The notes under the pieces: model-generated | Seen by the model: the letters and a program-made list of their open reading frames with translations, nothing else | Database searches by the model: none | What the model was told of the DNA's origin: nothing | Source of the DNA: Octopus sinensis | Taxonomy: Eukaryota | Direction: 5' to 3' | DNA length: 64,000 nucleotides | NCBI RefSeq assembly: GCF_006345805.1 | Contig: NC_043005.1 | Span: 93,310,001-93,374,000 of the forward strand | Shown here: piece by piece, positions 9,947 through 60,213 of the stretch | Position numbering within the stretch: position 1 is the stretch's first letter | Layout: every line of letters starts with the position of its first letter | Translations under genes and position numbers: made by a program

Positions 9947-12900
9947 TTCATGAATAAGCAGAAGGGCTGAAACGTAAGCGAAGAATATACATGAAGTTTC
10001 ATGAATAAGCAGAAGGGATAAATCGTAAGCCAAGAATATCCATGATGTTTCATGAAGAAGCAGAAGGGCTGAAACGTAAGCCAAGAATATACATGACGTT
10101 TCATGGAGAAGCAGAAGGGCTGAAACGTATGCCAAGAATATACATGATGTTTCATGAATAAGATTAAGGGCTGAAACGTAAGCCAAGAATATACATGATG
10201 TTTCAGGAAGAAGCAGAAGGGCTTGAATGTAAGCCAAGGATATCCATGCTGTTTCATGAATAAGCAGAAGGGCTTGAACGTAAGCCAAGAATATACATGA
10301 TGTTTCATGAATAAGCAAAAGGGCTGAAACGTAAGCCAAGAATATATATGATGTTTCATGAATAAGCAGAAGAGCTGAAACGTAAGCCAAGAATATACAT
10401 GATGTGTCATGAAGATGGAGAAGGGCTGAAACGTAAGCCAAGAACATACATGATGTTTCATGAATAAGCAGAAGGGCTGAAGCGTAAGCCAAGAATATAC
10501 GTGATGTTTCATGAAGAAGCAGAAGGGATGAAACGTAAGCCAAGAATATCCATGATGTTTCATGAAGAAGCAGAAGGGATGAAACGTAAGCCAAGAATAT
10601 ACATGAAGTTTCATGTAGAAGCAGAAGTGCTGAAACGTAAGTCATGAATATACATGATATTTCATCAATAAGCAGAAGGGCTGAAACGTAAGCCAAGAAA
10701 ATACATGATGTTTCATGAAGAAGCAGAAGGGCTGAAACGTAAGCCAAGAATATCCATGATGTTTCATAAATAAGCAGAAGGGATGAAACGTTAGCCAAAT
10801 AAATACATGATGTGTCATGAAGAAGCAGAAGGGCTGAAACGTAAGCCAAGAATATACATGATGTTTCATGAAGAAGCAGAAGGGCTGAAACGTAAGTTAT
10901 GAATATACATGATGTTTCATGAATAAGCAGAAGGGCTGAAACGTAAGCGAAGAATATACATGAAGTTTCATGAATAAGCAGAAGGGATAAAACGTAAGCC
11001 AAGAATATCCATGATTTCATGAAGAAGAAGAGAAGGGCTGAAACGTAAGCCAAGAATATACATGACGTTTCATGGAGAAGCAGAAGGGCTGAAACGTATG
11101 CCAAGAATATACATGATGTTTCATGAATAAGATGAAGGGCTGAAACGTAAGCCAAGAATATACATGATGTTTCAGGAAGAAGCAGAAGGGCTGAAACGTA
11201 AGCCAAGAATATACATGACGTTTCATGGAGAAGCAGAAGGGCTGAAACGTAAGCCAAGAATGTACATGATCTTCATGAAGAAGCAGAGAAGGGCTGAAAC
11301 GTAAGCAAGAATAAGAATATCCATGATGTTTCAGGAAGAAGCAGAGGGGCTGAGAACGTAAGCCAAGATTTTATATGATGTTTCATGAATAAGCAGAAGG
11401 GCTTGAATGTAAGCCAAGGATATCCATGCTGTTTCATGAATAAGCAGAAGGGCTTGAACGTAAGCCAAGAATATACATGATGTTTCATGAATAAGCAAAA
11501 GGGCTGAAACGTAAGCCAAGAATATATATGATGTTTCATGAATAAGCAGAAGAGCTGAAACGTAAGCCAAGAATATACATGATGTGTCATGAAGATGCAG
11601 AAGGGCTGAAACGTAAGCCAAGAACATACATGATGTTTCATGAATAAGCAGAAGGGCTTAAGCGTACGCCAAGAATATACGTGATGTTTCATGAAGAAGC
11701 AGAAGGGCTGAAACGTAAGCCAACAATATACATGATGAGTCATGAATAAGCAGAAGGGCTGAAACGTAAGCCAAGAACATACATGATGTTTCATGAATAA
11801 GCAGAAGGGCTGAAGCGTAAGCCAAGAATATACGTGATGTTTCATGAAGAAGCAGAAGGGATGAAACGTAAGCCAAGAATATCCATGATGTTTCATGAAG
11901 AAGCAGAAGGGATGAAACGTAAGCCAAGAATATACATGATGTTTCATGAAGAAGCAGGAGGGATGAAACGTAAGCCAAGAATATACATGATGTTTCCTGA
12001 AGAAGCAGAAGGGCTGAAACGTAAGCCAAGAATATACATGATGTTCCATGAATAAGCAGAAGGGCTGAAACGTAAGCCAAGAATATACATGATGTTTCAT
12101 GAAGAAGCAGGAGGGCTGAAACGTAAGCCAAGAATATACATGATGTTTCATGAAGAAGCAGAAGGGCTGAAACGTAAGTCATGAATATACATGATGTTTC
12201 ATGAATAAGCAGAAGGGCTGAAACGTAAGCGAAGAATATACATGAAGTTTCATGAATAAGCAGAAGGGATAAAACGTAAGCCAAGAATATCCATGATTTT
12301 TCATGAAGAAGCAGAAGGGCTGAAACGTAAGCCAAGAATATACATGACGTTTCATGGAGAAGCAGAAGGGCTGAAACGTATGCCAAGAATATACATGATG
12401 TTTCATGAATAAGATGAAGGGCTGAAACGTAAGCCAAGAATATACATGATGTTTCAGGAAGAAGCAGAAGGGCTGAAACGTAAGCCAAGAATATACATGA
12501 CGTTTCATGGAGAAGCAGAAGGGCTGAAACGTAAGCCAAGAATATACATGATCTTTCATGAAGAAGCAGAAGGGCTGAAACGTAAGCCAAGAATATCCAT
12601 GATGTTTCAGGAGGAAGCAGAGGGGCTGAAACGTAAGCCAAGATTTTATATGATGTTTCATGAATAAGCAGAAGGGCTTGAATGTAAGCCAAGGATATCC
12701 ATGCTGTTTCATGAATAAGCAGAAGGGCTTGAACGTAAGCCAAGAATATACATGATGTTTCATGAATAAGCAAAAGGGCTGAAACGTAAGCCAAGAATAT
12801 ATATGATGTTTCATGAATAAGCAGAAGAGCTGAAACGTAAGCCAAGAATATACATGATGTGTCATGAAGATGCAGAAGGGCTGAAACGTAAGCCAAGAAC

Positions 12901-15900
12901 ATACATGATGTTTCATGAATAACCAGAAGGGCTGAAGCGTAAGCCAAGAATATACGTGATGTTTCATGAAGAAGCAGAAGGGCTGAAACGTAAGCCAAGT
13001 ATATACATGATGAGTCATGAAAAAGCAGAAGGGCTGAAACGTAAGCCAAGAACATACATGATGTTTCATGAATAAGCAGAAGGGCTGAAGCGTAAGCCAA
13101 GAATATACGTGATGTTTCATGAAGAAGCAGAAGGGATGAAACGTAAGCCAAGAATATCCATGATGTTTCATGAAGAAGCAGAAGGGATGAAACGTAAGCC
13201 AAGAATATACATGATGTTTCATGAAGAAGCAGGAGGGATGAAACGTAAGCCAAGAATATACTTGATGTTTCATGAAGAAGCAGAAGGGCTGAAACGTAAG
13301 CCAAGAATATACATGATGTTCCATGAATAAGCAGAAGGGCTGAAACGTAAGCCAAGAATATACATGATGTTTCATGAAGAAGCAGGAGGGCTGAAACGTA
13401 AGCCAAGAATATACATGATGTTTCATGAAGAAGCAGAAGGGCTGAAACGTAAGTCATGAATATACATGATGTTTCATGAATAAGCAGAAGGGCTGAAACG
13501 TAAGCGAAGAATATACATGAAGTTTCATGAATAAGCAGAAGGGATAAAACGTAAGCCAAGAATATCCATGATGTTTCATGAAGAAGCAGAAGGGCTGAAA
13601 CGTAAGCAACGAATATACATGACGTTTCATGGAGAAGCAGAAGGGCTGAAACGTATGCCAAGAATATACATGATGTTTCATGAATAAGATGAAGGGCTGA
13701 AACGTAAGCCAAGAATATACATGATGTTTCAGGAAGAAGCAGAAGGGCTGAAACGTAAGCCAAGAATATACATGACGTTTCATGGAGAAGCAGAAGGGCT
13801 GAAACGTAAGCCAAGAATATACATGATCTTTTATGAAGAAGCAGAAGGGCTGAAACGTAAGCCAAGAATATCCATGATGTTTCAGGAAGAAGCAGAGGGG
13901 CTGAAACGTAAGCCAAGATTTTATATGATGTTTCATGAAAAAGCAGAAGGGCTTGAATGTAAGCCAAGGATATCCATGCTGTTTCATGAATAAGCAGAAG
14001 GGCTTGAACGTAAGCCAAGAATATACATGATGTTTCATGAATAAGCAAAAGGGCTGAAACGTAAGCCAAGAATATATATGATGTTTCATGAATAAGCAGA
14101 AGAGCTGAAACGTAAGCCAAGAATATACATGATGTGTCATGAAGATGCAGAAGGGCTGAAACGTAAGCCAAGAACATACATGATGTTTCATGTATAACCA
14201 GAAGGGCTGAAGCGTAAGCCAAGAATATACGTGATGTTTCATGAAGAAGCAGAAGGGCTGAAACGTAAGCCAAGAATATACATGATGAGTCATGAATAAG
14301 CAGAAGGGCTGAAACGTAAGCCAAGAATATACATGATGTTTCATGAATAAGCAGAAGGGCTGAAGCGTAAGCCAAGAATATACGTGATGTTTCATGAAGA
14401 AGCAGAAGGGATGAAACGTAAGCCAAGAATATCCATGATGTTTCATGAAGAAGCAGAAGGGATGAAACGTAAGCCAAGAATATACATGATGTTTCATGAA
14501 GAAGCAGGAGGGATGAAACGTAAGCCAAGAATATACATGATGTTCATGAAGAAGCAGAAGGGCTGAAACGTAAGCCAAGAATATCCATGATGTTTCATAA
14601 TAAGCAGAAGGATGAAACGTTAGCCAATTAAATACATGATGTGTCATGAAGAAGCAGAAGGGCTGAAACGTAAGCCAAGAATATACATGATGTTTCATGA
14701 AGAAGCAGAAGGGCTGAAACGTAAGTCATGAATATACATGATGTTTCATGAATAAGCAGAAGGGCTGAAACGTAAGCGAAGAATATACATGAAGTTTCAT
14801 GAATAAGCAGAAGGGATAAAACGTAAGCCAAGAATATCCATGATGTTTCATGAAGAAGCAGAAGGGCTGAAACGTAAGCCAAGAATATACATGACGTTTC
14901 ATGGAGAAGCAGAAGGGCTGAAACGTATGCCAAGAATATACATGATGTTTCATGAATAAGATGAAGGGCTGAAACGTAAGCCAAGAATATACATGATGTT
15001 TCAGGAAGAAGCAGAAGGGCTGAAACGTAAGCCTAGAATATCCATGATGTTTCAGGAAGAAGCAGAGGGGCTGAAACGTAAGCCAAGATTTTATATGATG
15101 TTTCATGAATAAGCAGAAGGGCTTGAATGTAAGCCAAGGATATCCATGCTGTTTCATGAATAAGCAGAAGGGCTTGAACGTAAGCCAAGAATATACATGA
15201 TGTTTCATGAATAAGCAAAAGGGCTGAAACGTAAGCCAAGAATATACATGATGTTTCATGAATAAGCAGAAGAGCTGAAACGTAAGCCAAGAATATACAT
15301 GATGTGTCATGAAGATGCAGAAGGGCTGAAACGTAAGCCAAGAACATACATGATGTTTCATGAATAACCAGAAGGGCTGAAGCGTAAGCCAAGAATATAC
15401 GTGATGTTTCATGAAGAAGCAGAAGGGCTGAAACGTAAGCCAAGAATATACATGATGAGTCATGAATAAGCAGAAGGGCTGAAACGTACGCCAAGAATAT
15501 ACATGATGTTTCATGAATAAGCAGAAGGGCTGAAACGTAAGCCAAGAATATCCATGATGTTTCATGAAGAAGCAGAAGGGATGAAATGTAAGCCAAGAAT
15601 ATACATGATGTTTCATGAAAGGAGGAGGATGAAACGTAAGCCAAGAATATACATGATGTTTCATGACGAAGCAGAAGGGCTGAAACGTAAGCCAAGAATA
15701 TACATGATGTTCCATGAATAAGCAGAAGGGCTGAAACGTAAGCCAAGAATATACATGATGTTTCATGAAGAAGCAGGAGGGCTGAAACGTAAGCCAAGAA
15801 TATACATGATGTTTCATGAAGAAGCAGAAGGGCTGAAACGTAAGTCATGAATATACATGATGTTTCATGAATAAGCAGAAGGGCTGAAACTTAAGCGAAG

Positions 15901-18900
15901 AATATACATGAAGTTTCATGAATAAGCAGAAGGGATAAAACGTAAGCCAAGAATATCCATGATGTTTCATGAAGAAGCAGAAGGGCTGAAACGTAAGCCA
16001 AGAACATACATGATGTTTCATGAATAAGCAGAAGGGCTGAAGCGTAAGCCAAGAATATACGTGATGTTTCATGAAGAAGCAGAAGGGATGAAACGTAAGC
16101 CGAGAATATCCATGATGTTTCATGAAGAAGCAGAAGGGATGAAACGTAAGCCAAGAATATACATGATGTTTTATGAAGAAGCAGGAGGGATGAAACGTAA
16201 GCCAAGAATATACATGATGTTTCATGAAGAAGCAGAAGGGCTGAAACGTAAGCCAAGAATATACATGATGTTCCATGAATAAGCAGAAGGGCTGAAACGT
16301 AGGCCAAGAATATACATGATGTTTCATGGAGAAGCAGGAGGGCTGAAACGTAAGCCAAGAATATACATGATGTTTCATGAAGAAGCAGAAGGGCTGAAAC
16401 GTAAGTCATGAATATACATGATGTTTCATGAATAAGCAGAAGGGCTGAAACGTAAGCGAAGAATATACATGATGTTTCATGAATAAGCAGAAGGGATAAA
16501 ACGTAAGCCAAGAATATCCATGATGTTTCATGAAGAAGCAGAAGGGCTGAAACGTAAGCCAAGAATATACATGACGTTTCATGGAGAAGCAGAAGGGCTG
16601 AAACGTAAGCCAAGAATATACATGACGTTTCATGGAAAGCAGATGGGCTGAAACGTAACCCAAGAATATACATGATCTTTCATGAAGAAGCAGAAGGGCG
16701 GAAACGTAAGCCAAGATTATACATGATGAGTCATGAATAAGCAGAAGGGCTGAAACGTAAGCCAAGAACATACATGATGTTTCATGAATAAGCAGAAGGG
16801 CTGAAACGTAAGCCAAGAATATACGTGATGTTTCATGAAGAAGCAGAAGGGATGAATCGTAAGCCAAGAATATCCATGATGTTTCATGAAGAAGCAGAAG
16901 GGATGAAACGTAAGCCAAGAATATACATGATGTTTCATGAAGAAGCAGGAGGGATGAAACGTAAGCCACGAATATACATGACGTTTCATGGAGAAGCAGA
17001 AGGGCTGAAACGTATGCCAAGAATATACATGATGTTTCATGAATAAGATGAAGGGCTGAAACGTAAGCCAAGAATATACATGATGTTTCAGGAAGAAGCA
17101 GAAGGGCTGAAACGTAAGCCAAGAATATACATGACGTTTCATGAGAAGCAGAAGGGCTGAAACGTAAGCCAAGAATATACATGATCTTTATGAAGAAGCA
17201 GAAGGGCTGAAACGTAAGCCAAGAATATCCATGATGTTTCATCAGGAAGAAGCAGAGGGCTGAAACGTAAGCCAAGATTTTATATGATGTTTCATGAATA
17301 AGCAGAAGGGCTTGAATGTAAGCCAAGGATATCCATGCTGTTTCATGAATAAGCAGAAGGGCTTGAACGTAAGCCAAGAATATACATGATGTTTCATGAA
17401 TAAGCAAAGGGCTGAAACGTAAGCCAAGAATATATATGATGTTTCATGAATAAGCAGAAGAGCTGAAACGTAAGCCAAGAATATACATGATGTGTCATGA
17501 AGATGCAGAAGGGCTGAAACGTAAGCCAAGAACATACATGATGTTTCATGTATAACAGAAGGGCTGAAGCGTAAGCCAAGAATATACGTGATGTTTCATG
17601 AAGAAGCAGAAGGGCTGAAACGTAAGCCAAGAATATACATGATGAGTCATGAATAAGCAGAAGGGCTGAAACGTAAGCCAAGAATATACATGATGTTTCA
17701 TGAATAAGCAGAAGGGCTGAAGCGTAAGCCAAGAATATACGTGATGTTTCATGAAGAAGCAGAAGGGATGAAACGTAAGCCAAGAATATCCATGATGTTT
17801 CATGAAGAAGCAGAAGGGATGAAACGTAAGCCAAGAATATACATGATGTTTCATGAAGAAGCAGGAGGGATGAAACGTATGCCAAGAATATACATGATGT
17901 TTCATGAAGAAGCAGAAGGGCTGAAACGTAAGCCAAGAATATCCATGATGTTTCATAAATAAGCAGAAGGGATGAAACGTTAGCCAATTAAATACATGAT
18001 GTGTCATGAAGAAGCAGAAGGGCTGAAACGTAAGCCAAGAATATACATGATGTTTCATGAAGAAGCAGAAGGGCTGAAACGTAAGTCATGAATATACATG
18101 ATGTTTCATGAATAAGCAGAAGGGCTGAAACGTAAGCGAAGAATATACATGAAGTTTCATGAATAAGCAGAAGGGATAAAACGTAAGCCAAGAATATCCA
18201 TGATGTTTCATGAAGAAGCAGAAGGGCTGAAACGTAAGCCAAGAATATACGTGACGTTTCATGGAGAAGCAGAAGGGCTGAAACGTATGCCAAGAATATA
18301 CATGATGTTTCATGAATAAGATGAAGGGCTGAAACGTAAGCCAAGAATATACATGATGTTTCAGGAAGAAGCAGAAGGGCTGAAACGTAAGCCAAGAATA
18401 TACATGACGTTTCATGGAGAAGCAGAAGGGCTGAAACGTAAGCCAAGAATATACATGATCTTTCATGAAGAAGCAGAAGGGCTGAAACGTAAGCCAAGAA
18501 TATCCATGATGTTTCAGGAAGAAGCAGAGGGGCTGAAACGTAAGCCAAGATTTTATATGATGTTTCATGAATAAGCAGAAGGGCTTGAATGTAAGCCAAG
18601 GATATCCATGCTGTTTCATGAATAAGCAGAAGGGCTTGAACGTAAGCCAAGAATATACATGATGTTTCATGAATAAGCAAAAGGGCTGAAACGTAAGCCA
18701 AGAATATACATGATGTTTCATGAATAAGCAGAAGAGCTGAAACGTAAGCCAAGAATATACATGATGTGTCACGAAGATGCAGAAGGGCTGAAACGTAAGC
18801 CAAGAACATACATGATGTTTCATGAATAACCAGAAGGGCTGAAGCGTAAGCCAAGAATATACGTGATGTTTCATGAAGAAGCAGAAGGGCTGAAACGTAA

Positions 18901-21900
18901 GCCAAGAATATACATGATGAGTCATGAATAAGCAGAAGGGCTGAAACGTACGCCAAGAATATACATGATGTTTCATGAATAAGCAGAAGGGCTGAAACGT
19001 AAGCCAAGAATATCCATGATGTTTCATGAAGAAGCAGAAGGGATGAAACGTAAGCCAAGAATATACATGATGTTTCATGAAGAAGGAGGAGGGATGAAAC
19101 GTAAGCCAAGAATATACATGATGTTTCATGAAGAAGCAGAAGGGCTGAAACGTAAGCCAAGAATATACATGATGTTCCATGAATAAGATGAAGGGCTGAA
19201 ACGTAAGCCAAGAATATACATGATGTTTCATGAAGAAGCAGGAGGGCTGAAACGTAAGCCAAGAATATACATGATGTTTCATGAAGAAGCAGAAGGGCTG
19301 AAACGTAAGTCATGAATATACATGATGTTTCATGAATAAGCAGAAGGGCTGAAACGTAAGCGAAGAATATACATGAAGTTTCATGAATAAGCAGAAGGGA
19401 TAAAACGTAAGCCAAGAATATCCATGATGTTTCATGAAGAAGCAGAAGGGCTGAAACGTAAGCCAAGAACATACATGATGTTTCATGAATAAGCAGAAGG
19501 GCTGAAGCGTAGGCCAAGAATATACATGATGTTTCATGAAGAAGCAGAAGGGATGAAACGTAAGCCGAGAATATCCATGATGTTTCATGAAGAAGCAGAA
19601 GGGATGAAACGTAAGCCAAGAATATACATGATGTTTCATGAAGAAGCAGGAGGGATGAAACGTAAGCCAAGAATATACATGATGTTTCATGAAGAAGCAG
19701 AAGGGCTGAAACGTAAGCCAAGAAATACATGATGTTCATGAATAAGCAGAAGGGCTGAAACGTAGGCCAAGAATATACATGATGTTTCATGAGAAGCAGG
19801 GCTGGCTGAAACGTAAGCCAAGAATATACATGATGTTTCATGAAGAAGCAGAAGGGCTGAAACGTAAGTCATGAATATACATGATGTTTCATGAATAAGC
19901 AGAAGGGCTGAAACGTAAGCGAAGAATATACATGAAGTTTCATGAATAAGCAGAAGGGATAAATCGTAAGCCAAGAATATCCATGATGTTTCATGAAGAA
20001 GCAGAAGGGCTGAAACGTAAGCCAAGAATATACATGACGTTTCATGGAGAAGCAGAAGGGCTGAAACGTATGCCAAGAATATACATGATGTTTCATGAAT
20101 AAGATGAAGGGCTGAAACGTAAGCCAAGAATATACATGATGTTTCAGGAAGAAGCAGAAGGGCTGAAACGTAAGCCAAGAATATACATGACGTTTCATGG
20201 AGAAGCAGAAGGGCTGAAACGTAAGCCAAGAATATACATGATCTTTCATGAAGAAGCAGAAGGGCTGAACCGTAAGCCAAGAATATCCATGATGTTTCAG
20301 GAAGAAGCAGAGGGGCTGAAACGTAAGCCAAGAGTTTATATGATGTTTCATGAATAAGCAGAAGGGCTTGAATGTAAGCCAAGGATATCCATGCTGTTTC
20401 ATGAATAAGCAGAAGGGCTTGAACGTAAGCCAAGAATATACATGATGTTTCATGAAAAAGCAAAAGGGCTGAAACGTAAGCCAAGAATATATATGATGTT
20501 TCATGAATAAGCAGAAGAGCTGAAACGTAAGCCAAGAATATACATGATGTGTCATGAAGATGCAGAAGGGCTGAAACGTAAGCCAAGAACATACATGATG
20601 TTTCATGAATAACCAGAAGGGCTGAAGCGTAAGCCAAGAATATACGTGATGTTTCATGAAGAAGCAGAAGGGCTGAAACGTAAGCCAAGTATATACATGA
20701 TGAGTCATGAAAAAGCAGAAGGGCTGAAACGTAGGCCAAGATCATACATGATGTTTCATTATTAAGCAGAAGGGCTGAAGCGTAAGCCAAGAATATACGT
20801 GATGTTTCATGAAGAAGCAGAAGGGATGAAACGTAAGCCAAGAATATCCATGATGTTTCATGAAGAAGCAGAAGGGATGAAACGTAAGCCAAGAATATAC
20901 ATGATGTTTCATGAAGAAGCAGGAGGGATGAAACGTAAGCCAAGAATATACATGATGTTTCATGAAGAAGCAGAAGGGCTGAAACGTAAGCCAAGAATAT
21001 ACATGATGTTCCATGAATTAGCAGAAGGGCTGAAACGTAAGCCAAGAATATACATGATGTTTCATGAAGAAGCAGGAGGGCTGAAACGCAAGCCAAGAAT
21101 ATACATGATGTTTCATGAAGAAGCAGAAGGGCTGAAACGTAAGTCATGAATATACATGATGTTTCATGAATAAGCAGAAGGGCTGAAACGTAAGCGAAGA
21201 ATATACATGAAGTTTCATGAAAAAGCAGAAGGGATAAAACGTAAGCGAAGAATATCCATGATGTTTCATGAAGAAGCAGAAGTGCTGAAACGTAAGCCAC
21301 GAATATACATGACGTTTCATGGAGAAGCAGAAGGGCTGAAACGTATGCCAAGAATATACATGATGTTTCATGAATAAGATGAAGGGCTGAAACGTAAGCC
21401 AAGAATATACATGATGTTTCAGGAAGAAGCAGAAGGGCTGAAACGTAAGCCAAGAATATACATGACGTTTCATGGAGAAGCAGAAGGGCTGAAACGTAAG
21501 CCAAGAATATACATGATCTTTCATGAATAAGCAGAAGGGCTGAAACGTAAGCCAAGAATATCCATGATGTTTCAGGAAGAAGCAGAGGGGCTGAAACGTA
21601 AGCCAAGATTTTATATGATGTTTCATGAATAAGCAGAAGGGCTTGAATGTAAGCCAAGGATATCCATGCTGTTTCATGAATAAGCAGAAGGGCTTGAACG
21701 TAAGCCAAGAATATACATGATGTTTCATGAATAAGCAAAAGGGCTGAAACGTAAGCCAAGAATATACATGATGTTTCATGAATAAGCAGAAGAGCTGAAA
21801 CGTAAGCCAAGAATATACATGATGTGTCATGAAGATGCAGAAGGGCTGAAACGTAAGCCAAGAACATACATGATGTTTCATGAATAACCAGAAGGGCTGA

Positions 21901-36900: not shown

Positions 36901-39900
36901 TTCATGAATAAGCAGAAGGGCTTGAACGTCAGCCAAGAATATACATGATGTTTCATGAATAAGCAAAAGGGCTGAAACGTACGCCAAGAATATATATGAT
37001 GTTTCATGAATAAGCAGAAGAGCTGAAACGTAAGCCAAGAAATACATGATGTGTCATGAAGATGCAGAAGGGCTGAAACGTAAGCCAAGAATATACATGA
37101 TGTGTCATGAAGATGCAGAAGGGCTGAAACGTAAGCCAAGAATATACGTGATGATTCATGAAGAAGCAGAAGGGATGAAACGTGAGCCAAGAATATACAT
37201 GATGTTTCATGAATAAGCAGAAGGGCTGAAACGTAAGCCAAGAATATCCATGATGTTTCATAAAGAAGCAGAAGGGCTGAAACGTAAGCCAAGAATATCC
37301 ATGATGTTTCATGAATAAGCAGAAGGGATGAAACTTTAGCCAATTAAATACATGATGTGTCATGAAGAAGCAGAAGGGCTAAAACGTCACCCGAGAATGT
37401 CCATGATGTTTCATGAAGAAGCAGAAGGGATGGAACGTAAGCCAAGAATATACATGATGTTTCATGAAGAAGCAGAAGGGCTGAAACGTAAGCCAAGAAT
37501 ATACATGATGTTCCATGAATAAGCAGAAGGGCTGAAACGTAAGCCAAGAATATACATGATGTTTCATGAAGAAGCAGAAGGGCTGAAACGTAAGCCAAGA
37601 ATATACATGATGTTTCATGAATAAGATGAAGGGCTGAAACGTAAGCCAAGAATATACATGATGTTTCATGAAGAAGCAGAAGGGCTGAAACGTAAGCCAA
37701 GAATATACATGACGTTTCATGGAGAAGCAGAAGGGCTTAAACGTAAGCCAAGAATATACATGATGTTTCATGAAGAAGCAGAAGGGCTGAAACGTAAGCC
37801 AAGTATATACATGATGTTTCATGAATAAGATGAAGGGCTGAAACGTAAGCCAAGCATATACATGATGTTTCATGTAGAAGCAGAAGGGCTGAAACGTAAG
37901 TCATGAATATACATGATGTTTCATGAAGAAGCAGAAGGGCTGAAACGTAAGCCAAGAATATCCATGATGTTTCATGAAGAAACAGAAGGGCTGAAACGTT
38001 AGCCAAGAATTTATATGACGTTTCATGAATAAGCAGAAGGGCTTGAACGTAAGCCAAGAATATACATGATGTTTAGCAATCACCAGAAGGGCTCAAACGT
38101 AAGCCAAGAATATCCATGATGTTTCATGAATAACCAGAAGGGCTGAAACGTAAGCCAAGAATATCCATGATGTTTATAAATAAACAGAAGGGCTGAAACG
38201 TAAGCCAAGAATATACATGATGTTTCATGAAGAAGCAGAAGGGCTGAAGCGTAAGCCAAGAATATACGTGATGATTCATGAAGAAGCAGATGGGATGAAA
38301 CGTGAGCCAAGAATATCCATGATGTTTCATGAAGAAGCAGAAGGGCTGAAACGTAAGCCAAGAATATCCATGATGTTTCATGAAGAAGCAGAAGGGCTGA
38401 AACGTAAGCCAAGAATATCCATGATGTTTCATGAATAAGCAGAAGGGCTGAAACGTAAGCCAAGAATATACATGATGTTTCATGAAGAAGCAGAAGGGCT
38501 GAAACGTAAGCCAAGAATATACATAATGTTTCATAAATAAGCAGAAGGGCTGGAACGTAAGCCAAGAATATACATGATGTTTCATGAATAACCAGAAGGG
38601 CTGAAACGTAAGCCAAGAATATCCATGATGTTTCATGAAGAAGCAGAAGTGCTGAAACGTAAGCCAAGTATATCCATGATGTTTCATGAATAAGCAGAAG
38701 GGATGAAACGTTAGCCAATTAAATACATGATGTGTCATGAAGAAGCAGAAGGGCTAAAACGTCACCCGAGAATATCCATGATGTTTCATGAATAAGCAGA
38801 AGGGCTGAAACGTAAGCCAAGAATATACATGATGTTTCATGAATAAGATGAAGGGCTGAAACGTAAGCCAAGAATATACATGATGTTTCATGAAGAAGCA
38901 GAAGGGTGAAACGTAAGCCAAGAATATACATGACGTTTCATGGAGAAGCAGAAGGGCTTCAACGTAAGCCAAGTATATCCATGATGTTTCATGAAGAAGC
39001 AGAAGGGCTGAAACGTAAGCCAAGAATATACATGATGTTTCATGAATAAGCAGAAGGGCTTAAGCGTAAGCCAAGAATATACGTTATGTTTCATGAAGAA
39101 GCAGAAGGGATGAAACGTAAGCCAAGAATATCCATGATGTTTCATGAAGAAGCAGATGGGCTGAAACGTAAGCCTAGAAAATCCATGATGTTTCATGAAG
39201 AAGCAGAAGGGCTGAAACGTAAGCCAAGAATATCCATGATGTTTCATGTACAAGCAGAAGGGCTGAAACATAAGCCAAGAATATACATGATGTTTCATGA
39301 AGAAGCAGAAGGGCTGAAACGTAAGCCAAGAATATCCATGATGTTTATAAATAATCAGAAGGGGTGAAACGTAAGCCAAGAATATACATGATATTTCATG
39401 AATAAGCAGAAGGGCTGAAACGTAAGCCAAGATTATACATGATGTTTCATGAATAAGCACGATGGCTGAAAGGTAAGCCAAGCCTATCCATGATGTTTCT
39501 AAAAGAAGCAGAAGGGCTGAAACGTAAGCCAAGAATATCCATGATGTTTCATAAATAAGCAGAAGGGCTGGAACGTAAGCCAAGAATATACATGATGTTT
39601 CATGAATAAGCAGAAGGGCTGAAACGTGAGCCAAGAATATCCATGTTGTATCATGAATAAGCAGAAGGGATGAAACGTAAGCCAAGAATATACCTGATGT
39701 TTCATGAAGAAGCAGAAGGGCTGAAACGTAAGCCAAGAATATACATGATGTTTCATGAAGAAGCAGAAGGGCTGAAACGTAAGCCAAGAATATACATGAT
39801 GTTCCATGAATAAGCAGAACGGCTGAAACGTAAGCCAAGAAATACATGATGTTTCATGAATAAGCAGAAGGGCTGAAACGTAAGCCAAGTATATACATGA

Positions 39901-45900: not shown

Positions 45901-48900
45901 AATATACGTGATGTTTCATGAATAAGCACAAGGGCTGAAAGGTAAGCCAAGAATATCCATGATGTTTCATGAAGAAGCAGAAGGGCTGAAACGTAAGCCA
46001 AGAATATCCATAATGTTTCATAAATAAGCAGAAGGGCTGGAACGTAAGCCAAGAATATACATGATGTTTCATGAATAAACAGAAGGGCTGAAACGTAAGC
46101 CAACAATATCCATGATGTTTCATGAAGAAGCAGAAGGGCTGAAACGTAAGCCAAGAATATCCATGATGTTTCATGAATAAGCAGAAGGGCTGAAACGTAA
46201 GCCAAGAAATACATGATGTGTCATGAAGAAGCAGAAGGGCTAACACGTAAGCCAGAGAATATCCATGATGTTTCATGAAGAAGCAGAAGGGCTGAAACGT
46301 AAGCCAAGAATATACATGATGTTTCATGAATAAGATGAAGGGCTGAAACGTAAGCCAAGAATATACATGATGTTTCATGAAGAAGCAGAAGGGGTGAAAC
46401 GTAAGCCAAGAATATACATGACGTTTCTGGATAAAGAAGCAGAAGGGCTTAAACGTAAGCCAAGAATATACATGATGTTTCATGAAGAAGCAGAAGGGCT
46501 GAAACGTAAGCCAAGAATATACATGATGTTTCATGAATAAGCAGAAGGGCTTATGCGTAAGCCAAGAATATACGTGATGTTTCATGAAGTAGCAGAAGGG
46601 ATGAAACGTAAGTCAAGAATATCCATGATGTTTCATGAAGAAGCAGAAGGGCTGAAACGTAAGCCTAGAAAATCCATGATGTTTCATGAAGAAGCAGAAG
46701 GGCTGAAACGTAAGCCAAGAATACATGATGTTTCATGTATGAACAAGCAGAAGGGCTGAAACATAAGCCAAGAATATACATGATGTTTCATGAAGAAGCA
46801 AAGGGCTGAAACGTAAGCCAAGAATATCCATGATGTTTATAAATAACCAGAAGGGGTGAAACGTAAGCCAAGAATATACATGATGTTTCATGAATAAGCA
46901 GAAGGGCTGAAACGTAAGCCAAGAATATACATGATGTTTCATGAATAAGCACGAGGGCTGAAAGGTAAGCCAAGATTATCCATGATGTTTCAAAGAAGCA
47001 GAAGGGCTGAAACGTAAGCCAAGAATATCCATGATGTTTCATAAATAAGCAGAAGGCTGGAACGTAACCAAGAATATACATGATGTTTCATGAATAAGCA
47101 GAAGGGCTGAAACGTAAGCCAAGAATATCCATGATGTTTCATGAAGAAGCAGAGGGCTGAAACGTAAGCCAAGAATATCCATGTTGTTTCATGAATAAGC
47201 AGAAGGGATGAAACGTAAGCCAAGTAATATACTGATGTTTCATGAAGAAGCAGAAGGGCTGAAACGTAAGCCAAGAATATACATGATGTTTCATGAAGAA
47301 GCAGAAGGGCTGAAACGTAAGCCAAGTATATACATGATGTTTCATGAATAAGAGAAGGGCTGAAACGTAACCAAGATATACATGATGTTTCATGAAGAAG
47401 CAGAAGGCCTGAAACTTAAGCCAAGAAAATACATCGTTTTATGAAGAAGCAGAAGGGCTGAAACGTATGCCAAGTATATACATGATATTTCATGAAGAAG
47501 CAGAAGGGCTGAAAAGTAAGCCAAGAATATACATGATGTTCCATGAATAAGTAGAACGGCTGAAACGTAAGCCAAGAATATACATGATGTTTCATGAAGA
47601 AGCAGAAGGGCTGAAACGTAAGTCATGAATATACATGATGTTTCATGAAGAAGCAGAAGGGCTGAAACGTAAGCCAAGAATATACATGACGTTTCATGGA
47701 GAAGCAGAAGGGCTGAAACGTAAGCCAAGAATATATATGATGTTTCATGAATAAGATGAAGGGCTGAAACGTAAGCCAAGAATATACATGATGTTTCAGG
47801 AAGAAGCAGAAGGGCTGAAACGTAAGCCAAGAATATACATGACGTTTCATGGAGAAGCAGAAGGGCTGAAACGTAAGCCAAGAATATACATGATGTTTCA
47901 TGAAGAAGCAGATGGGCTGAAACGTAAGCCAAGAATATCCATGATGTTTCAGGAAGAAGCAGAGGGGCTGAAACGTAAGCCAAGATTTTATATGATGTTT
48001 CATGAATAAGCAGAAGGGCTTGAATGTAAGCCAAGGATATCCATGCTGTTTCATGAATAAGCAGAAGGCTTGAACGTAAGCCAAGAATATACATGATGTT
48101 TCATAATAAGCAAAAGGGCTGAAACGTAAGCCAAGAATATATATGATGTTTCATGAATAAGCAGAAGAGCTGAAACGTAAGCCAAGATATACATGATGTG
48201 TCATGAAGATGCAGAGAGGGCTGAAACGTAAGCCAGAATATACATGATGTTTCATGAATAACCAGAAGGGCTGAAGCGTAAGCCAAGAATATACGTGATG
48301 TTTCATGAAGAAGCAGAAGGGCTGAAACGTAAGCCAAGAATATACATGATGAGTCATGAATAAGCAGAAGGGCTGAAACGTAAGACAAGAATATACATGA
48401 TGTTTCATGAATAAGCAGAAGGGCTGAAGCGTAAGCCAAGAATATACGTGATGTTTCATGAAGAAGCAGAAGGGATGAAACGTAAGCCAAGAATGTACAC
48501 GATGTTTCATGAAGAAGCAGAAGGGCTGAAACGTAAGCCAAGAATATACATGATGTTCCATGAATAAACAGACGGGCTGAAACGTAAGCCAAGAATATAC
48601 ATGATGTTTCATGGAGAAGCAGGAGGGCTGAAACGTAAGCCAAGAATATACATGATGTTTCATAAATAAGCAGAAGGGCTGGAACGTAAGCCAAAAATAT
48701 ACATGATGTTTCATGAATAAGCAGAAGGGCTGAAACGTAAGCCAAGAATATCCATGATGTTTCATGAAGAAGCAGAAGGGCTGAAACGTAAGCCAAGAAT
48801 ATCCATGATGTTTCATGAATAAGCGGAAGGGATGAAACGTTAGCCAATTAAATACATGATGTGTCATTAAGAAGCAGAAGGGCTAAAACGTCACCCGAGA

Positions 48901-51900
48901 ATGTCCATGATGTTTCATGAAGAAGCAGAAGGGATGAAACTTAAGCCAAGAATATACATGATGTTTCATGAAGAAGCAGAAGGGCTGAAACGTAAGCCAA
49001 GAATATACATGATGTTCCATGATGAAGCAGAAGGGCTGAAACGTAAGCCAAGAATATACATGATGTTTCATGAAGAAGCAGAAGGGCTGAAACGTAAGCC
49101 AAGAATATACATGTTTTCATGAATAAATGAAGGGCTGAAACGTAAGCCAAGAATATACATGATGTTTCATGAAGAAGCAGAAGGGCTGCAACGTAAGCCA
49201 AGAATATACATGACGTCTCATGGAGAAGCAGAAGGGCTTAAACGTAAGCCAAGAATATACATGAAGTTTCATGTAGAAGCAGAAGGCTGAAACGTAAGTC
49301 ATGATATACATGATATTTCATGAAGAAGCAGAAGGGCTGAAACGTAAGCAAGAATATCCATGATGTTTCATGAAGAAACAGAAGGGCTGAAACGTTAGCC
49401 AAGAATTTATATGACGTTTCATGAATAAGCAGAAGGGCTTGAACGTAAGCCAAGAATATACATGATATTTAGAAATCACCAGAAGGGCTCAAACGTAAGC
49501 CAAGAATATCCATGATGTTTCATGAATAACCAGAAAGGCTGAAACGTAAGCCAAGAATATCCATGATGTTTATAAATAACCAGAAGGGGTGAAACGTAAG
49601 CCAAGAATATACATGATGTTTCATGAAGAAGCAGAAGGGCTGAAACGTAAGTCATGAATATACATGATGTTTCATGAAGAAGCAGAAGGCTGAAACGTAA
49701 GCCAAGAATATACATGATGTTTCATGGAGAAGCAGAAGGGCTGAAACGTACCAAGAATATATATGATGTTTCATGAATAGAAGAGAAGGGCTGAACGTAA
49801 GCCAAGAATATACATGATGTTTCATGAAGAAGCAGAAGGGCTGAAACGTAAGCCAAGAATATACATGACGTTTCATGAGAAGCAGAAGGGCTGAACGTAA
49901 GCCAAGAATATACATGATGTTTCATGAATAAGCAGAAGGGCTGAAACGTAAGCCAAGAATATACATGATGTTTCATGAGAAGCAGAAGGGCTGAAACGTA
50001 AGCCAAGATATACATGATGTTTCATGAAAAAGCAGAAGGGCTGAAACGTAAGCCAAGAATATACATGATGTTTCATGAAGAAGCAGAGGGCTGAAACGTA
50101 AGCCAAGAATATACATGATGTTTCATAAATAAGCAGAAGGGCTGGAACGTAAGCCAAAATATACATGATGTTTCATGAATAAGCAAGGGCTGAAACGTAA
50201 GCCAAGAATATCCATGATGTTTCATGAAGAAGCAGAAGGGCTGAAACGTAAGCCAAGATATCCATGATGTTTCATGAATAAGCAGAAGGGATGAAACGTA
50301 GCCAATTAATACATGATGTGTCATGAAGAAGCAGAAGGGCAAAACGTCACCCGAGAATGTCCATGATGTTCATGAAGAAGCAGAAGGGCTGAAACGTAAG
50401 CAAGAATATACATGATGTTTCATGAAGAAGGCAGAAGGGCTGAAACGTAGCCAAGAATATACATGATGTTCCATGAAGAAGCAGAAGGGCTGAAACTAAG
50501 CCAAGAATATCCATGATGTTTCATGAAGAAGCAGAAGGGCTGAAACGTAAGCCAAGAATATACATGATGTTTCATGAATAAGAGAAGGGCTGAAACGTAA
50601 GCCAAGAATATACATGATGTTTCATGAAGAAGCAGAAGGGCTGAAACGTAAGCCAAGAATATACATGATGTTTCATGAGAAGCAGAGGGCTGAAACGTAA
50701 GCCAAGAATATACTGATGTTTCATGAAGAAGCAGAAGGGCTGAAACGTAAGCCAAGAATATACATGATGTTTCATGAAAAGCAGAAGGGCTGAAACGTAA
50801 GCCAAGAATATACATGATGTTTCATGAAGAAGCAGAAGGGCTGAACGTTAGCCAAGAATATCATGATGTTTCATGAATAAGCAGAAGGGCTGAAACGTAG
50901 CCAGAATATACATGATGTTTGTTGAATACCAGAAGGGCTGAAACGTACCAAGAATATACATGATGTTTCATGAATAAGCAGAAGGCTGAAACGTAAGCAG
51001 AATATACATGATGTTTCATGAATAAGCAGAAGGGCTGAAACGTAAGCCAGATATACATGATGTTTCATGAAAAGCAGAAGGGCTGAAACGTAAGCCAAGA
51101 ATATACATGATGTTCATGAGACAGAAGGGCTGAAACGTAAGCCAAGAATATACATGATGTTTCATGAAGCAGAAGGGCTGAAACGTAAGCCAAAATATAC
51201 ATGATGTTTCATGAAGAAGCAGAGGGCTGAAACGTAAGCCAAGAATATCCATGATGTTTCATGAAGAAGCAGAAGGGCTGAAACGTAAGCCAAGAATATA
51301 CATGATGTTTCATGAAGAAGCAGAAGGGCTGAAACGTAAGCCAAGAATATCCATGATGTTTCATGAATAAGCAGAAGGGCTGAAACGTAAGCCAAGAATA
51401 TACATGATGTTTCATGAAGAAGCAGAATGGCTGAAACGTAAGCCAAGAATATACATGATGTTTCATGAATAAGCAGAAGGGCTGAAACGTAAGCCAAGAA
51501 TATACATGTTGTTTCATGAAGAAGCAGAAGGGCTGAAACGTAAGCCAAGAATATACATGATGTTTCATAATAAGCAGAAGGGCTGAAACGTAAGCCAAGA
51601 ATATACATGATGTTTCATGAAGAAACAGAAGGGCTGAACGTAAGCCAAGAATATACATGATGTTTCATGAAGAAGCAGAAGGGCTGAAACGTAAGCCAAG
51701 ATATACATGAATGTTTCATGAATAAGCAGAAGGGCTGAACGTAAGCCAAGTAATATACATGATTTTCATGAAGGCAAAGAGGCTAAAACGTAAGCCAAGA
51801 ATATCCATGATGTTTCATGAAGAAGCAGAAGGGCTGAAACGTAAGCCAAGATATACATGATGTTTCATGAATAAGATGAAGGGCTGAAACGTAAGCCAAG

Positions 51901-54900
51901 AATATACATGATGTTTCCAAGATCATAGAAGGCAGAAGGGGTGAAACGTAAGCCAAGAATATCCATGATGTTTCATGAAGAAGCAGAAGGGCTGAAACGT
52001 AAGCCAGAAATACATGATTTTCTGAAGAAGCAGAAGGGCTGAAACGTAAGCCAAGAATACATGATGTTTCATGAATAAGCAGAAGGGCTGAAACGTAAGC
52101 CAAGAATATACATGATGTTCATGATGAAGCAGAAGGGATGAAACGTAAGCCAAAAATATACATGATGTTTCATGAATAGCAGAAGGGCTGAAACGTAAGC
52201 CAAAAATATACATGATGTTTCATGAAGAAGCAGAAGGGCTCAAACGTAAGCCAAGAATATACATGACGTTTCATGGAGAAGCAGAAGGGCTTAAACGTAA
52301 GCCAAGAATATACATGATGTTTCATGAAGAAGCAGAAGGGCTGAAACGTAAGCCAAGAATATACATGATGTTTCATGAATAAGCAGAAGGGCTGAAGCGT
52401 AAGCCGAGAATATACGTGATGTTTCATGAAGAAGCAGAAGGGATGAAACGTAAGCCAAGAATATCCATGATGTTTCATGAATAAGCAGAAGGGCTGAAAC
52501 GTAAGCCAAGAAAATCCATGATGTTTCATGAAGAAGCAGAAGGGCTGAAACGTAAGCCAAGAACATACATGATGTTTCATGAATAAGCACAAGGGCTGAA
52601 AGGTAAGCCAAGACTATCCATGATGTTTCTAGAAGAAGCAGAAGGGCTGAAACGTAAGCCAAGAATATCCATGATGTTTCATAAATAAGCAGAAGGGCTG
52701 GAACCTAAGCCAAGAATATCCATGATGTGTCATGAAGAAGCAGAAGGGCTGACACGTCAGCCAAGAATATCCATGTTGTTTCATGAATAAGCAGAAGGGA
52801 TGAAACGTAAGCCAAGAATATACCTGATGTTTCATGGAGAAGCAGAAGGGCTGAAACGTCAGCCAAGAATATCCATGATGTTTCATGAAGAAGCAGAAGG
52901 GCTGAAACGTAACCCAGGAATATACATGATGTTTCATGAATAACCAGAAGGGCTGAAACATAAGCCAAGAATATACATGATGTTTCATGAATAAGCAGAA
53001 GGGCTGAAACGTAAGCCTAGAATATACATGATGTTTCATGAATAAGCAGAAGGGCTGAAATGTAAGCCAAGAATATACATGATGTTTCATGAATAGGCAG
53101 AACGGCTGAAACGTAAGTCAAGAATATTTATGATGTTTCATGAATAAGATGAGGGGCCGAAACTTAAGCCAAGAATATACATGATGTGTCATGTATAACC
53201 AGAAGGGCTGAAACGTAAGCCAAGAATATACATGACGTATCATGAATAAGCAGAAGGGCTGAAACGTAAGTCAAGAATATTCATGATGTTTCATGAAGAA
53301 GCAGAAGGGCTGAACCCTAAGCCAAGAATATACATGATGTTTCATGAATAAGCAGAAGGGCTGAAACATAAGCCTAGATTGTACATGATGTCTCATGAAT
53401 AAGCAGAAGGGATAAAACGTAAGCCAAGAATATACATGATGTTTCATGAAGAAGCAGAAGGGCTGAAACATAAGCCAAGAATATACATGATGTTTCATGA
53501 ATAGGCCGAACGGCTGAAACGTAAGTCAAGAATATACATGATGTTTCATGAATAAGCAGAAGGGCTGAAACATAAGCCAAGAATATACATGATGTCTCAT
53601 GAATAAGCAGAAGGGCTGAAACATAAGCCAAGAATATACCTGATGTTTCATGAATAAGCAGAAGGGCTGAAACATAAGCCAAGAATATACATGATGTTTC
53701 ATGAAGAAGCAGAAGGGCTGAAACGTAAGCCAAGAATATACATGATGTTTCATGAATAGGCAGAAGGGCTGAAACATAAGCCAAGTATATACATGATGTT
53801 TCATGAAGAAGCAGAAGGGCTGAACCCTAAGCCAAGAATATACATGATGTTTCATGAATAAGCAGAAGGGCTGAAACATAAGCCTAGAATGTACATGATG
53901 TCTCATGAATAAGCAGAAGGGATAACACGTAAGCCAAGAATATACATGATGTTTCATGAAGAAGCAGAAGGGCTGAAACATAAGCCAAGAATATACATGA
54001 TGTTTCATGAAGAAGCAGAAGGGCTGAAACGTAAGCCAAGAATATACATGATGTTTCATGAATAGGCAGAACGGCTGAAACGTAAGTCAAGTATATACAT
54101 GATGTTTCATGAATAAGCAGAAGGGCTGAAACATAAACCAAGAATATACATGATGTTTCATGAATAAGCAGAAGGGCTGAAACATAAGCCTAGAATGTAC
54201 ATGATGTCTCATGAATAAGCACGAGGGCTGAAACGTAAGCCAAGAATATCCATGATGTTTCATGAATAACGAGAAGGGCTGAAACGTAAGCCAAGAATAT
54301 CCATGATGTTTCATGAAGAAGCAGAAGGGCTGAAACGTAAGCCAAGAATATACATGATGTTTCATGAATAAGCAGAAGGGCTGAAACATAAGCCTAGAAT
54401 GTACATGATGTCTCATGAATAAGCACGAGGGATAAAACGTAAGCCAAGAATATCCATGATGTTTCATGAATAACCAGAAGGGCTGAAACGTAAGCCAAGA
54501 ATATCCATGATGTTTCATGAAGAAGCAGAAGGGCTGAAACGTAAGCCAAGAATATACATGATGTTTCATGAATAGGCAGAACGGCTGAAATGTAAGTCAA
54601 GAATATACATGATGTTTCATGAATAAGCAGAAGGGCTGAAACATAAGCCAAGAATATACATGATGTCTCATGAATAAGCAGAAGGGCTGAAACATAAGCC
54701 AAGAATATACATGATGTTTCATGAATAAGCAGAAGGGCTGAAACATAAGCCAAGAATATACATGAAGTTTCATGAATAAGATGAAGGGCTGAAACATAAG
54801 CCAAGAATATACATGATGTTTCATGAATAAGCAGAAGGGCTGAAACATAAGCCAAGAATATACATGATGTTTCATGAATAAGCAGAAGGGCTGAAACATA

Positions 54901-56596
54901 AGCCAAGAATATACATGATGTTTCATGAATAAGATGAAGGGCTGAAACATAAGCCAAGTATATACATGATGTTTCATGAATAAGCAGAAGGGCTGAAACA
55001 TAAGCCAAGAATATACATGATGTTTCATGATTAAGCAGAAGGGCTGAAACTAAGCCAAGAATAACATGATGTTTCATGAATAAGAGAAGGGCTGAAACAT
55101 AAGCCAAGAATATACATGATGTTTCATGAATAAGCAGAAGGGCTGAAACATAAGCCAAGAATATACATGATGTTTCATGAATAAGCAGAAGGGCTGAAAC
55201 ATAAGCCAAGAATATACATGATGTTTCATGAATAAGATGAAGGGCTGAAACATAAGCCAAGAATATACATGATGTTTCATGAATAAGCAGAAGGGCTGAA
55301 ACATAAGCCAAGAATATACATGATGTTTCATGAATAAGATGAAGGGCTGAAACATAAGCCAAGAATATACATGATGTTTCATGAATAAGCAGAAGGGCTG
55401 AAACATAAGCCAAGAATATACATGATGTTTCATGAATAGCAGAAGGGCTGAAACGTAAGTCATATATACATGATGTTCATGAATAAGCAGAAGGGCTGAA
55501 ACATAGCCAAGAATATACATGATGTTTCATGAATAAGCAGAGGGCTGAAACATAAGCCAGAATATACATGATGTTTCATGAATAAGCAGAAGGCTGAAAC
55601 ATTCCATGAATAAGCACGAGGGATAAAACGTAAGCCAAGAATATCCATGATGTTTCATGAATAACCAGAAGGGCTGAAACGTAAGCCAAGAATGTCTCAT
55701 GAATAAGCACGAGGGATAAAACGTAAGCCAAGAATATCCATGATGTTTCATGAATAACCAGAAGGGCTGAAACGTAAGCCAAGAATATCCATGATGTTTC
55801 ATGAAGAAGCAGAAGGGCTGAAACGTAAGCCAAGAATATACATGATGTTTCATGAAGTAGCAGAAGGGCTGAAACGTAAGCCAAGAATATCCATGATGTT
55901 TCATGTATAACCAGAAGGGCTGAAACGTAAGCCAAGAATATACATGATGTTTCATGAAGAAGCAGAAGGGCTGAAACGTAAGCCTAGAATGTACATGATG
56001 TCTCATGAATAAGCACGAGGGATAAAACGTAAGCCAAGAATATCCATGATGTTTCATGAATAACCAGAATGGCTGAAACGTAAGCCAAGAATATCCATGA
56101 TGTTTCATGAAGAAGCAGAAGGGCTGAAACGTAAGCCAAGAATATACATGATGTTTCATGAAGTAGCAGAAGGGCTGAAACGTAAGCCAAGAATATCCAT
56201 GATGTTTCATGTATAACCAGAAGGGCTGAAACGTAAGCCAAGAATATACATGATGTTTCATGTAGAAGCAGAAGGGCTGAAACGTAAGCCAAGAATATCC
56301 ATGATGTTTCATGAAGAAGCAGAAGGGCTGAAACGTAAGCCAAGAATATACATGATGTTTCATGAAGTAGCAGAAGGGCTGAAACGTAAGCCAAGAATAT
56401 CCATGATGTTTCATGTATAACCAGAAGGGCTGAAACGTAAGCCAAGAATATACATGATGTTTCATGAAGAAGCAGAAGGGCTGAAACGTAAGCCAAGAAT
56501 ATCCATGATATTTCATGAAGAAGCAGAAGGGCTGAAACGTAAGCCAAGAATATACATGATGTTTCATGAATAAGATGAAGGGCTGAAACGTAAGCC
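9947..56596. repeat. 51-bp tandem satellite, ~915 monomers, with higher-order repeats
   Basis: Consensus TTCATGAA[G/T]AAGCAGAAGGGCTGAAACGTAAGCCAAGAATATACATGATGT repeated head-to-tail in one orientation; no inserted element was seen; 17-aa periodicity in the ORF track. Confidence 0.99.
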
Positions 56597-56692
56597 CTTT
56601 CTAAATGGGTAATGTAACTTTGAATTTAGGTCGAAGGTAATATCTAGGAAATTAACTATCTTAGTTTTAGTTTCATATGTACTGCCTAGAAA
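56597..56692 (-). pseudogene. Penelope-like reverse transcriptase fragment (inverted)
   Basis: Minus strand encodes TKTKIVNFLDITFDLNSKLHYPFRK, matching the PLE RT C-terminal pattern VNFLDxTxDL..Y.P(Y/F)RK; recognised from family knowledge. Confidence 0.7.
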
Positions 56693-56696
56693 TTTC

Positions 56697-56965
56697 AATA
56701 ATAATAATAATAATGGTAATATTAAATATATTATCAATAATGATGATAGCAACAACAACAACAATAATAATAATGATAATAATAATAATAATAATAACAA
56801 CGTTGATATAAATAATGATAATAACAATACCAATAATACAGATAGTATAAGTAAAATTATGGTAGGTGGGAATGATGGTGAAGATGGATTGATAAATAGT
56901 AACCCTAATTTAGATATCAACATGATCACTAATAATGAAAATAATACTAATAATAATTTTAATAT
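56697..56965 (+). repeat. (AAT)n/(AAC)n/(GAT)n tract, probably an Asn-rich linker
   Basis: Trinucleotide repeats directly upstream of the Cys motif. Confidence 0.8.
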
Positions 56966-57028
56966 CAGTAATGTTCGGGAACTATCCTTAAATAATTCCA
57001 AAACTGAATACTATCCCCCGCCCCCCGT

Positions 57029-57452: not shown

Positions 57453-57762
57453 AAATTATGAGTATTCCTATATTTTTCAAATTTTAACTTTTTATTATAA
57501 TAATAATAAGAAATATACTATACTAGCCTTCAACTTAACTTTCATAGAGGACTAAAAATCTTCACTGTAAACTTGAAATTGAATTTTTTTGTAAATCTAA
57601 TCTAGTCTTAAAGTTAATAAAGCTATCCCCCAATTATAAAATACTATGCCTTCTCATAAGTGATAGTTTTTTCCCTACTCTTTGTAAAGGAGATTAATGA
57701 CCTTTTGACACTGACCTAGTTTCTTCTCACCAAATAGCAGTAATTGGCATCTTGTTAGTGGC

Positions 57763-60210: not shown

Positions 60211-60213
60211 ATC

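Follow-up and report, generated by a model that had tools for sequence, protein, structure and literature searches.

A single-locus 51-bp satellite of Octopus sinensis that may descend from a minimal hammerhead ribozyme

Could a tandem array have grown from a ribozyme? The question is raised by a 51-bp satellite that occupies positions 9947..56596 (+ strand) of a 64,000-nucleotide stretch of the Octopus sinensis genome (G000:C9:93310001-93374000; hereafter the window, whose own numbering is used unless a G000 coordinate is given). An earlier note, made from the letters of this stretch, had pointed out that each unit resembles the core of a hammerhead ribozyme and had proposed a satellite whose whole unit is a ribozyme-sized module, with an inactive relic or a chance likeness as the fallback. 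Here we describe the array, which is found at one locus, the ribozyme core of its units, which is broken, and a dispersed hammerhead family of the same genome, whose letters the unit matches. From these comparisons we lean, with slightly better than even confidence, towards the unit being a decayed and shortened copy of a minimal hammerhead from that abundant family, predicted not to cut RNA.

The satellite is confined to a single locus

Repeat detection gave a period of 51 and 917.7 copies, and the block was segmented into 918 units, in agreement with the roughly 900 tandem copies reported before. The limits needed revision: although 9947..56596 describes the satellite within the window, its 5' end there is an assembly gap (100 N, 9847-9946), and a further 314 units lie upstream of the window at G000:C9:93292716-93308700 (the 3' limit being approximate). 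The two blocks, with 11 kb between them, bring the total in the assembly to about 1,230 units, or 62 kb of satellite. Most units of the downstream block (766/918) are exactly 51 bp long, and 401 distinct unit sequences occur; identity to the commonest unit stays at 0.93-0.95 along the array, the mean identity between units is 0.90, and higher-order periodicity amounts to weak peaks at lags of 25, 35 and 60. Searches of the genome for two exact unit words returned matches at the array locus only (585/585 and 617/617), as did a third unit pattern (290/290); exact-word searches would miss decayed copies. One decayed outlier, a profile match with E 1.8e-4, lies at G000:C9:93291267-93291324, 1.4 kb 5' of the upstream block. 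The 51-bp satellite is confined to a single locus and has the features of an ordinary satellite: its units run head to tail over a great length, variants are dispersed among them, and the edges are decayed.

At its 3' edge (G000:C9:93308660-93309000) the upstream block decays abruptly into sequence that looks of low quality, and this edge may be a read-end assembly artefact rather than a true one. A bacterial promoter scan of the array's 5' edge, a type of scan unsuited to animal DNA, gave nothing.

Hammerhead-like letters of the unit and their defects

The unit reads ATGTTTC-A-TGAAGA-AGCAGAAGGGCT-GAAACGTA-AGCC. Its columns 3-10 hold a C, an extra A and TGAAGA; columns 11-13 and 20-22 correspond to helix II, 23-26 to GAAA, 26-29 to the palindrome ACGT and 28-30 to the triplet GTA. 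The commonest unit forms a single adjacent pair (39701..39802, + strand), which served as the natural dimer for folds and scores. The letters to which attention had been drawn are present: position 3 is A in 907/918 units, position 8 is G in 510/918 and T in 387/918, the G12-A-A-A15.1 box is kept in 817, 851, 912 and 859 of the 918 units at its four columns, the C-G of the palindromic helix III is found in 829/918, and the palindrome runs into an NUH triplet, GAAACGTA occurring 662 times on the + strand. The whole A3/G8 motif, however, is carried by only 206/918 units.

The exact C3-U-G-A-N-G8-A9 box (CTGANGA) occurs in 2/918 units here and in 0/314 upstream. Those two are never adjacent; one has it via an A to C change (11997..12023, +), and the other is without the extra A and has a helix I of only 2 pairs (52022..52048, +). 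A fully intact motif with C3-G8 is found in 1/918 units and in no adjacent pair. For the GAAGA variant, the A at position 3 had been read as the sole deviation from the core. That A is there, but on its letters the unit may still possess C3, displaced by the extra A that follows it rather than mutated.

In published hammerheads, positions 3 and 8 are shown as C3-G8 or as a natural U3-A8 (PMC4209133, PMC3884650, PMC3088659). In the array they form an A-G mismatch in 503/918 units and an A-U Watson-Crick pair in 385/918, the latter through the T8 form, which the earlier note did not mention. The caveat that no helix I sits in register was borne out: 0 pairs are found where 4-5 bp are expected. 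In a shifted register, with one A looped out, 3/4 pairs form at 737/917 joints. Helix II is 3 bp long and has an A-U closure in place of the usual G10.1-C11.1.

Contigs of organism C contain the 51-bp unit, the array's 5' edge and the position-8 G/T split, which is common to organisms A and C; no position-3 variants at the 1% level were listed among the organism C contigs. Runs X11 and X12 belong to one study, and the contigs demonstrate presence only. Runs guessed to be RNA gave 12, 1 and 1 contigs, which may be DNA and are uninformative on level, strand and ends.

The likeness exceeds chance and extends into a dispersed hammerhead family

To compare the unit with controls we used the earlier note's motif as a minimal descriptor (any base, TGANGA, helix II of at least 3 pairs, GAAA, a palindromic or hairpin helix III, and UH). 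It marks the unit as unusual, being reached by 30/20,000 dinucleotide shuffles (0.15%), 23/20,000 plain shuffles and 30/20,000 51-mers taken from the window outside the array; if a single core mismatch is tolerated at any place, 105/20,000 shuffles (0.5%) pass. The hammerhead likeness of the 51-bp unit therefore exceeds chance for one satellite. It is not unusual in a scan of thousands of satellites: since 0.15-0.5% of shuffles pass, such a likeness is expected now and then in a large scan. These rates leave room for coincidence, in which a purine-rich 51-mer was amplified and its hammerhead-like letters were singled out among many satellites scanned, an account that we hold to be quite possible, though short of even. 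Three lines of evidence argue against it: a match to a hammerhead family that extends past the core, the letters of the outlier copy, and the alignment of the unit's two halves with natural deletion copies.

Genome-wide, a hammerhead core pattern had 52,503 matches, against 7,646 for the reversed control (an excess of ~45,000), so that a hammerhead seed for a satellite would not be rare. The genome holds several abundant hammerhead families, some of them as close inverted pairs. For the family that concerns us, sampling through the 3' flank alone gave at least 9,855 copies; it makes up 15-17 (by count) of the first 100 core-pattern matches. It reads ATGTTT-C(T/C)GANGA-AGAGCTYYGCTC-GAAACGTT-AAAC, with helix I GUUU/AAAC; abridged, it is ATGTTT-CTGANGA-AG...GCTC-GAAACGT, beside ATGTTTC-A-TGAAGA-AG...GCT-GAAACGT for the unit. 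A subgroup (L173, L177) ends in GAAACGTA-AGAC.

The mean score of the natural dimer against 30 flank-selected family copies was reached by 10/3,000 shuffles and, among 828 descriptor-passing shuffles drawn from 597,430, by 5. A C one base upstream plus such a helix I as the shifted register provides was present in 12/828 descriptor-passing shuffles. One base upstream, the 5' flank of the unit matches that of the family at 7/7 letters, and at least 6/7 was attained by 0/828. A family-blind test kept the highest score over 30 core loci that had not been selected; this family or its close relative took the first five places, and the score was reached by 10/3,000 shuffles and 8/696 descriptor-passing shuffles. 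The outlier copy, in which the TGA is lost, bears helix I GTTT/AGAC with 4/4 pairs, as in the L173/L177 subfamily. A likeness to the family's 3' flank is seen in the other half of the unit (80/5,000 shuffles reach this). The tract behind the hammerhead is deleted in all 4 family copies examined among 7 non-array matches (control count 6), and the two halves of the unit align, in order, with these natural tract-deletion copies.

Position 4 is C rather than U (CCGACGA) in 14/28 aligned family copies; this form is probably impaired, yet on that count it is widely spread. At loci L197-L226 the family takes the form of a short repeat that carries the hammerhead and has TA runs at its borders. Only 3 hammerhead motifs, too few to rank families, came out of an off-centre census covering 561 kb of the loci fetched.

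A possible route from family copy to satellite

On the origin that we favour, a family copy would have lost a roughly 30-nt pyrimidine tract behind its hammerhead, and its helix II loop would have been inverted. Two natural family copies have such an inverted loop, in keeping with the loop of purines seen in the unit and the outlier, and template switching has been described as a producer of inversions of this kind (PMC8794818). A head-to-tail duplication spanning U4 to the 3' flank would then have left, at the joint, an A between C3 and U4. Unit number would have grown at the DNA level, by unequal exchange and slippage without selection on the ribozyme, a mode favoured over spread through RNA because the units are at a single locus. 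Later, an ORF1-type piece of a long interspersed nuclear element (LINE; ORF, open reading frame), a 5'-inverted Penelope-like element and others would have inserted into the array.

Several observations weigh against this origin, and some of them speak for coincidence. Under a covariance model for which 28 real copies of the dispersed family were used, the best array unit had 10.9 bits (E 2.6), which is noise level, compared with 18.7 bits for an unrelated real hammerhead at 9231-9273, our internal positive control, and 38-49 for family members. A one-pass long-gap alignment, the direct test of the deletion model, was not significant (118/1,789; 36/475 conditional). Genome pattern searches for a direct parent found no dispersed copy that has the helix II or the 5' flank proper to the unit, returning two array copies only, none outside the array, two ordinary family copies, and none. 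The four edges of the array showed no trace of the family's outer arms. Against the family, the T8 form has a weaker score (reached by 55/3,000 shuffles), and T is the letter at position 8 in the outlier copy and in the first and last units, for which reason it may be the older one. The family-blind score was reached by 14/3,000 window 51-mers, some of which overlap the real motif. It was a pattern derived from the 3' end of the unit that first led to the family; the register shift, the linker match and the loop inversion were proposed after the data had been inspected; and the linker and 5' flank matches have seven letters in common. Descent from the family requires several changes, and its parent would be reconstructed from about 30 letters.

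A rough sum sets these points in proportion. With ~45,000 excess cores of 40 bp in 2.7 Gb, the prior for a satellite seeding on a core is ~7e-4, compared with a chance of ~1.6e-5 that a shuffle passes both the descriptor and the family-blind tests. It is because of this sum, discounted for at least four changes and for the post hoc choices, that we place a relic of the family modestly ahead of an even chance and coincidence clearly below it. Of the two fallbacks that the earlier note had offered, the relic is the better reading.

Were the relic reading true, a 62-kb satellite would have been seeded by a ribozyme core, and the two proposed steps of tract deletion and loop inversion would be visible in natural family copies of the same genome. 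Hammerhead arrays could then outlive catalysis, and searches for intact cores would miss them. Knowledge of hammerhead chemistry or of retrozymes would be unchanged; only the unlikely case of an active array would surprise specialists.

The units are predicted not to cut RNA

Folding of 142 natural tetramers gave a mean pairing probability of 0.54 for the GGCU/AGCC hairpin, 0.047 for helix II and 0.07 for a dimer helix III. For the natural dimer, a forced hammerhead-like fold had -3.6 kcal/mol compared with -20.4 (a gap of about 17). The competing hairpin, raised earlier as a caveat, is thus the dominant fold. Columns of the core were not better conserved than the others: the means were 0.908 and 0.950 and the medians 0.942 and 0.956 (one-sided p 0.87), and the core mean is lowered by the position-8 G/T column. 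T8 units were no more often intact than G8 units (145/387 vs 208/510, p 0.33). There is no sign of selection on the ribozyme core in the array.

The proposed Rfam check was run and gave no hammerhead among 67 matches in the window up to E 10. It also gave none on 5 loci with real hammerhead motifs and, since real motifs are missed as well, its silence on the array is uninformative.

With an exact core box in 2/918 units, no in-register helix I, a dominant rival fold, no sign of selection and a noise-level covariance score, the array units are predicted not to cut RNA and to be an inactive fossil. The idea of a satellite of ribozyme modules is kept in part: the likeness exceeds chance, real minimal hammerheads share its layout, and one family matches beyond the core, but the idea of a working unit finds no support.

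Could A3-U8 units, or units with the A looped out, nonetheless cut as dimers and yield 51-nt ladders or circles in the manner of retrozymes? In favour of an active or latent array, an A3-U8 pair is available in the 385 units given above, of which 144 keep every other element and 33 adjacent pairs do so; the converse swap, U3-A8, exists naturally in elements of Schistosoma (PMC4209133), and the core variants described include natural, if impaired, ones with a short insertion close to C3 (PMC3088659). The AGC..GCT (A-U) closure of helix II is found in 41 dispersed core matches compared with 1 in the control, a G-C to C-G double change occurs in helix II of 5/918 units, and the position-8 split is shared between organisms. 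Yet helix I is missing if the A is taken as position 3, and if the C is, an insertion lies inside the core box; the middle pair of helix II is broken in 145 units; and the fold energies, the conservation of core columns and the intactness of T8 units, no higher than that of G8 units, all point the other way. The units are, moreover, at one locus, and no dispersed A3 family was seen: there are 10 non-array matches, and the 8 examined showed no common family apart from an inverted pair and a single decayed copy belonging to a C3 family. We therefore regard catalysis by the array as very improbable. If it did occur, an active A3-U8 satellite would be the smallest and most amplified retrozyme known.

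Comparison with known systems

Retrozymes of the non-LTR kind (LTR, long terminal repeat) have units of about 220-350 bp (PMC7229834, Cervera and de la Pena 2020). The earlier view of tandem hammerhead repeats, in which every unit is far longer than 51 bp, is out of date: a 2026 preprint gives consensus lengths of 51-972 bp, with up to 300 units, for repeats derived from the ends of Penelope-like elements that grew locally into arrays (bioRxiv 10.64898/2026.07.22.740005; Li, Clavereau and Pollet 2026). Among dimers tested there, 1/9 cleaved and 8/9 did not, and the preprint's criterion for a retrozyme array is a complete hammerhead in two consecutive units. Like non-LTR retrozymes, the array consists of head-to-tail repeats whose unit has a type I hammerhead-like motif, and 51 bp lies in the reported range. 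Unlike them, it has no complete hammerhead in two consecutive units, its about 1,230 units sit at one locus with no dispersed monomers found, and it is known from DNA. The array resembles a retrozyme array but is not a member of that class.

The minimal type I motif of Penelope-like elements, for which a natural U3-A8 and low activity even in dimers are also described, was defined by Cervera and de la Pena 2014 (PMC4209133). The unit shares with it GAAA, a palindromic loopless helix III and an NUH triplet, and its spacing equals that of a real hammerhead family in the same genome. In that paper the motif differs in having a helix I of 4-5 bp, where the unit has 0 pairs in register and a displaced or absent C3, and in having a longer helix II closed by G10.1-C11.1 with an unpaired base before it, where the unit has 3 bp and A-U. 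Minimal hammerheads of Penelope-like elements sit in the element's end repeat and the unit does not. It matches the dispersed family and not an adjacent element; the family's tie to Penelope-like elements is at most putative, a GIY-YIG frame lying, on either side, near 5/92 loci.

Satellites that arose from part of a transposable element form a general class. The array resembles such satellites in its short unit, single locus, decayed edges, variants common to related organisms and later insertions; it would be unlike them in that the putative source piece is the ribozyme core itself. Satellites from pieces of transposable elements are discussed in the 2026 preprint (bioRxiv 10.64898/2026.07.22.740005). 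A literature search, with subscription papers mostly outside it, found no description of this satellite or of a natural A3-U8 hammerhead.

Neighbouring elements

The last unit abuts an inverted fragment of 93 bp of a Penelope-like reverse transcriptase (FLDITFDL motif; 56597..56689, - strand), followed by a 5'-truncated Penelope-like element at 56690..58175 (+), with an Asn-rich stretch, a GIY-YIG endonuclease and a 3' untranslated part, that has many relatives in the genome. The GIY-YIG frame (57090-57452) matches Pfam with E 8.5e-4, below the curated cut-off. At 4/30 related loci the reverse transcriptase fragment is in sense with the endonuclease, and inverted 5' pieces are typical of Penelope-like elements (bioRxiv 10.1101/2021.04.23.441226). 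A type I hammerhead of the element itself lies at 58061..58151 (+; C3 at 58067, GAAA at 58133). Its helix II is long and holds a 59-nt insert; the hammerhead keeps its layout in 21/26 relatives that cover the site (L042-L070) and is unlike the satellite unit. Letters of its helices II and III differ by subfamily with pairing kept (GCACT/AGTGC vs GTACT/AGTAC; CAATTG vs CGATCG). At the array's 5' edge lies a decayed ORF1-like element of a large family (G000:C9:93291400-93292630, L037); its relatives (L076) include head-to-tail ORF1-only copies, some about 1.75 kb apart. Its frame, at the upstream block, we take to be LINE ORF1, Pfam having given no match.

Did the unit come from one of these neighbours, the Penelope-like element at the 3' end or the ORF1-type element at the 5' end? 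Contact at both edges would suit such an origin, the upstream block beginning about 35 bp past the decayed ORF1-like frame, and the unit can be read as 17 codons. However, the 29 Penelope-like relatives contained no unit-like sequence, as many relatives of the ORF1 element (29) stayed at shuffle level (bar gappy matches in purine-rich coding sequence), and a profile search of 90 loci (290 kb) found no unit. The Penelope-like element bears a different hammerhead of its own, and a decayed unit is found beyond the ORF1 piece, for which reason that piece was likely inserted into the array edge. Both pieces look like insertions at the edges, with the Penelope-like element a neighbour of the array and not its source; origin from either, largely refuted, is rejected and would be the least expected of the accounts considered here. 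A coding repeat was likewise rejected, 377/918 units having an in-frame TAA.

Across the assembly gap, 670 bp from the array, the positive control at 9231..9273 (-) is a minimal type I hammerhead motif that is intact and belongs to another family. It has a 4-bp helix I, an extra U before a 4-bp helix II, a loopless AUAU and an AUA triplet, and no close relative among the fetched loci. Between the two satellite blocks, at 5487-8321 (+), lies a nearly whole LINE ORF2 with endonuclease and reverse transcriptase in two frames (Pfam RVT_1, E 7e-24). Downstream of the array, a long near-perfect inverted repeat (59009-59713) has a hairpin at 59314-59468 with a TA-rich centre; its Rfam microRNA matches are far below family cut-offs. 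Further on lie a mariner-type transposase fragment (60187-60669; Pfam HTH_48, E 5e-7) and, on the - strand, the decayed 3' part of a LINE (62641-63953), beside which is a 1.2-kb TA-rich microsatellite.

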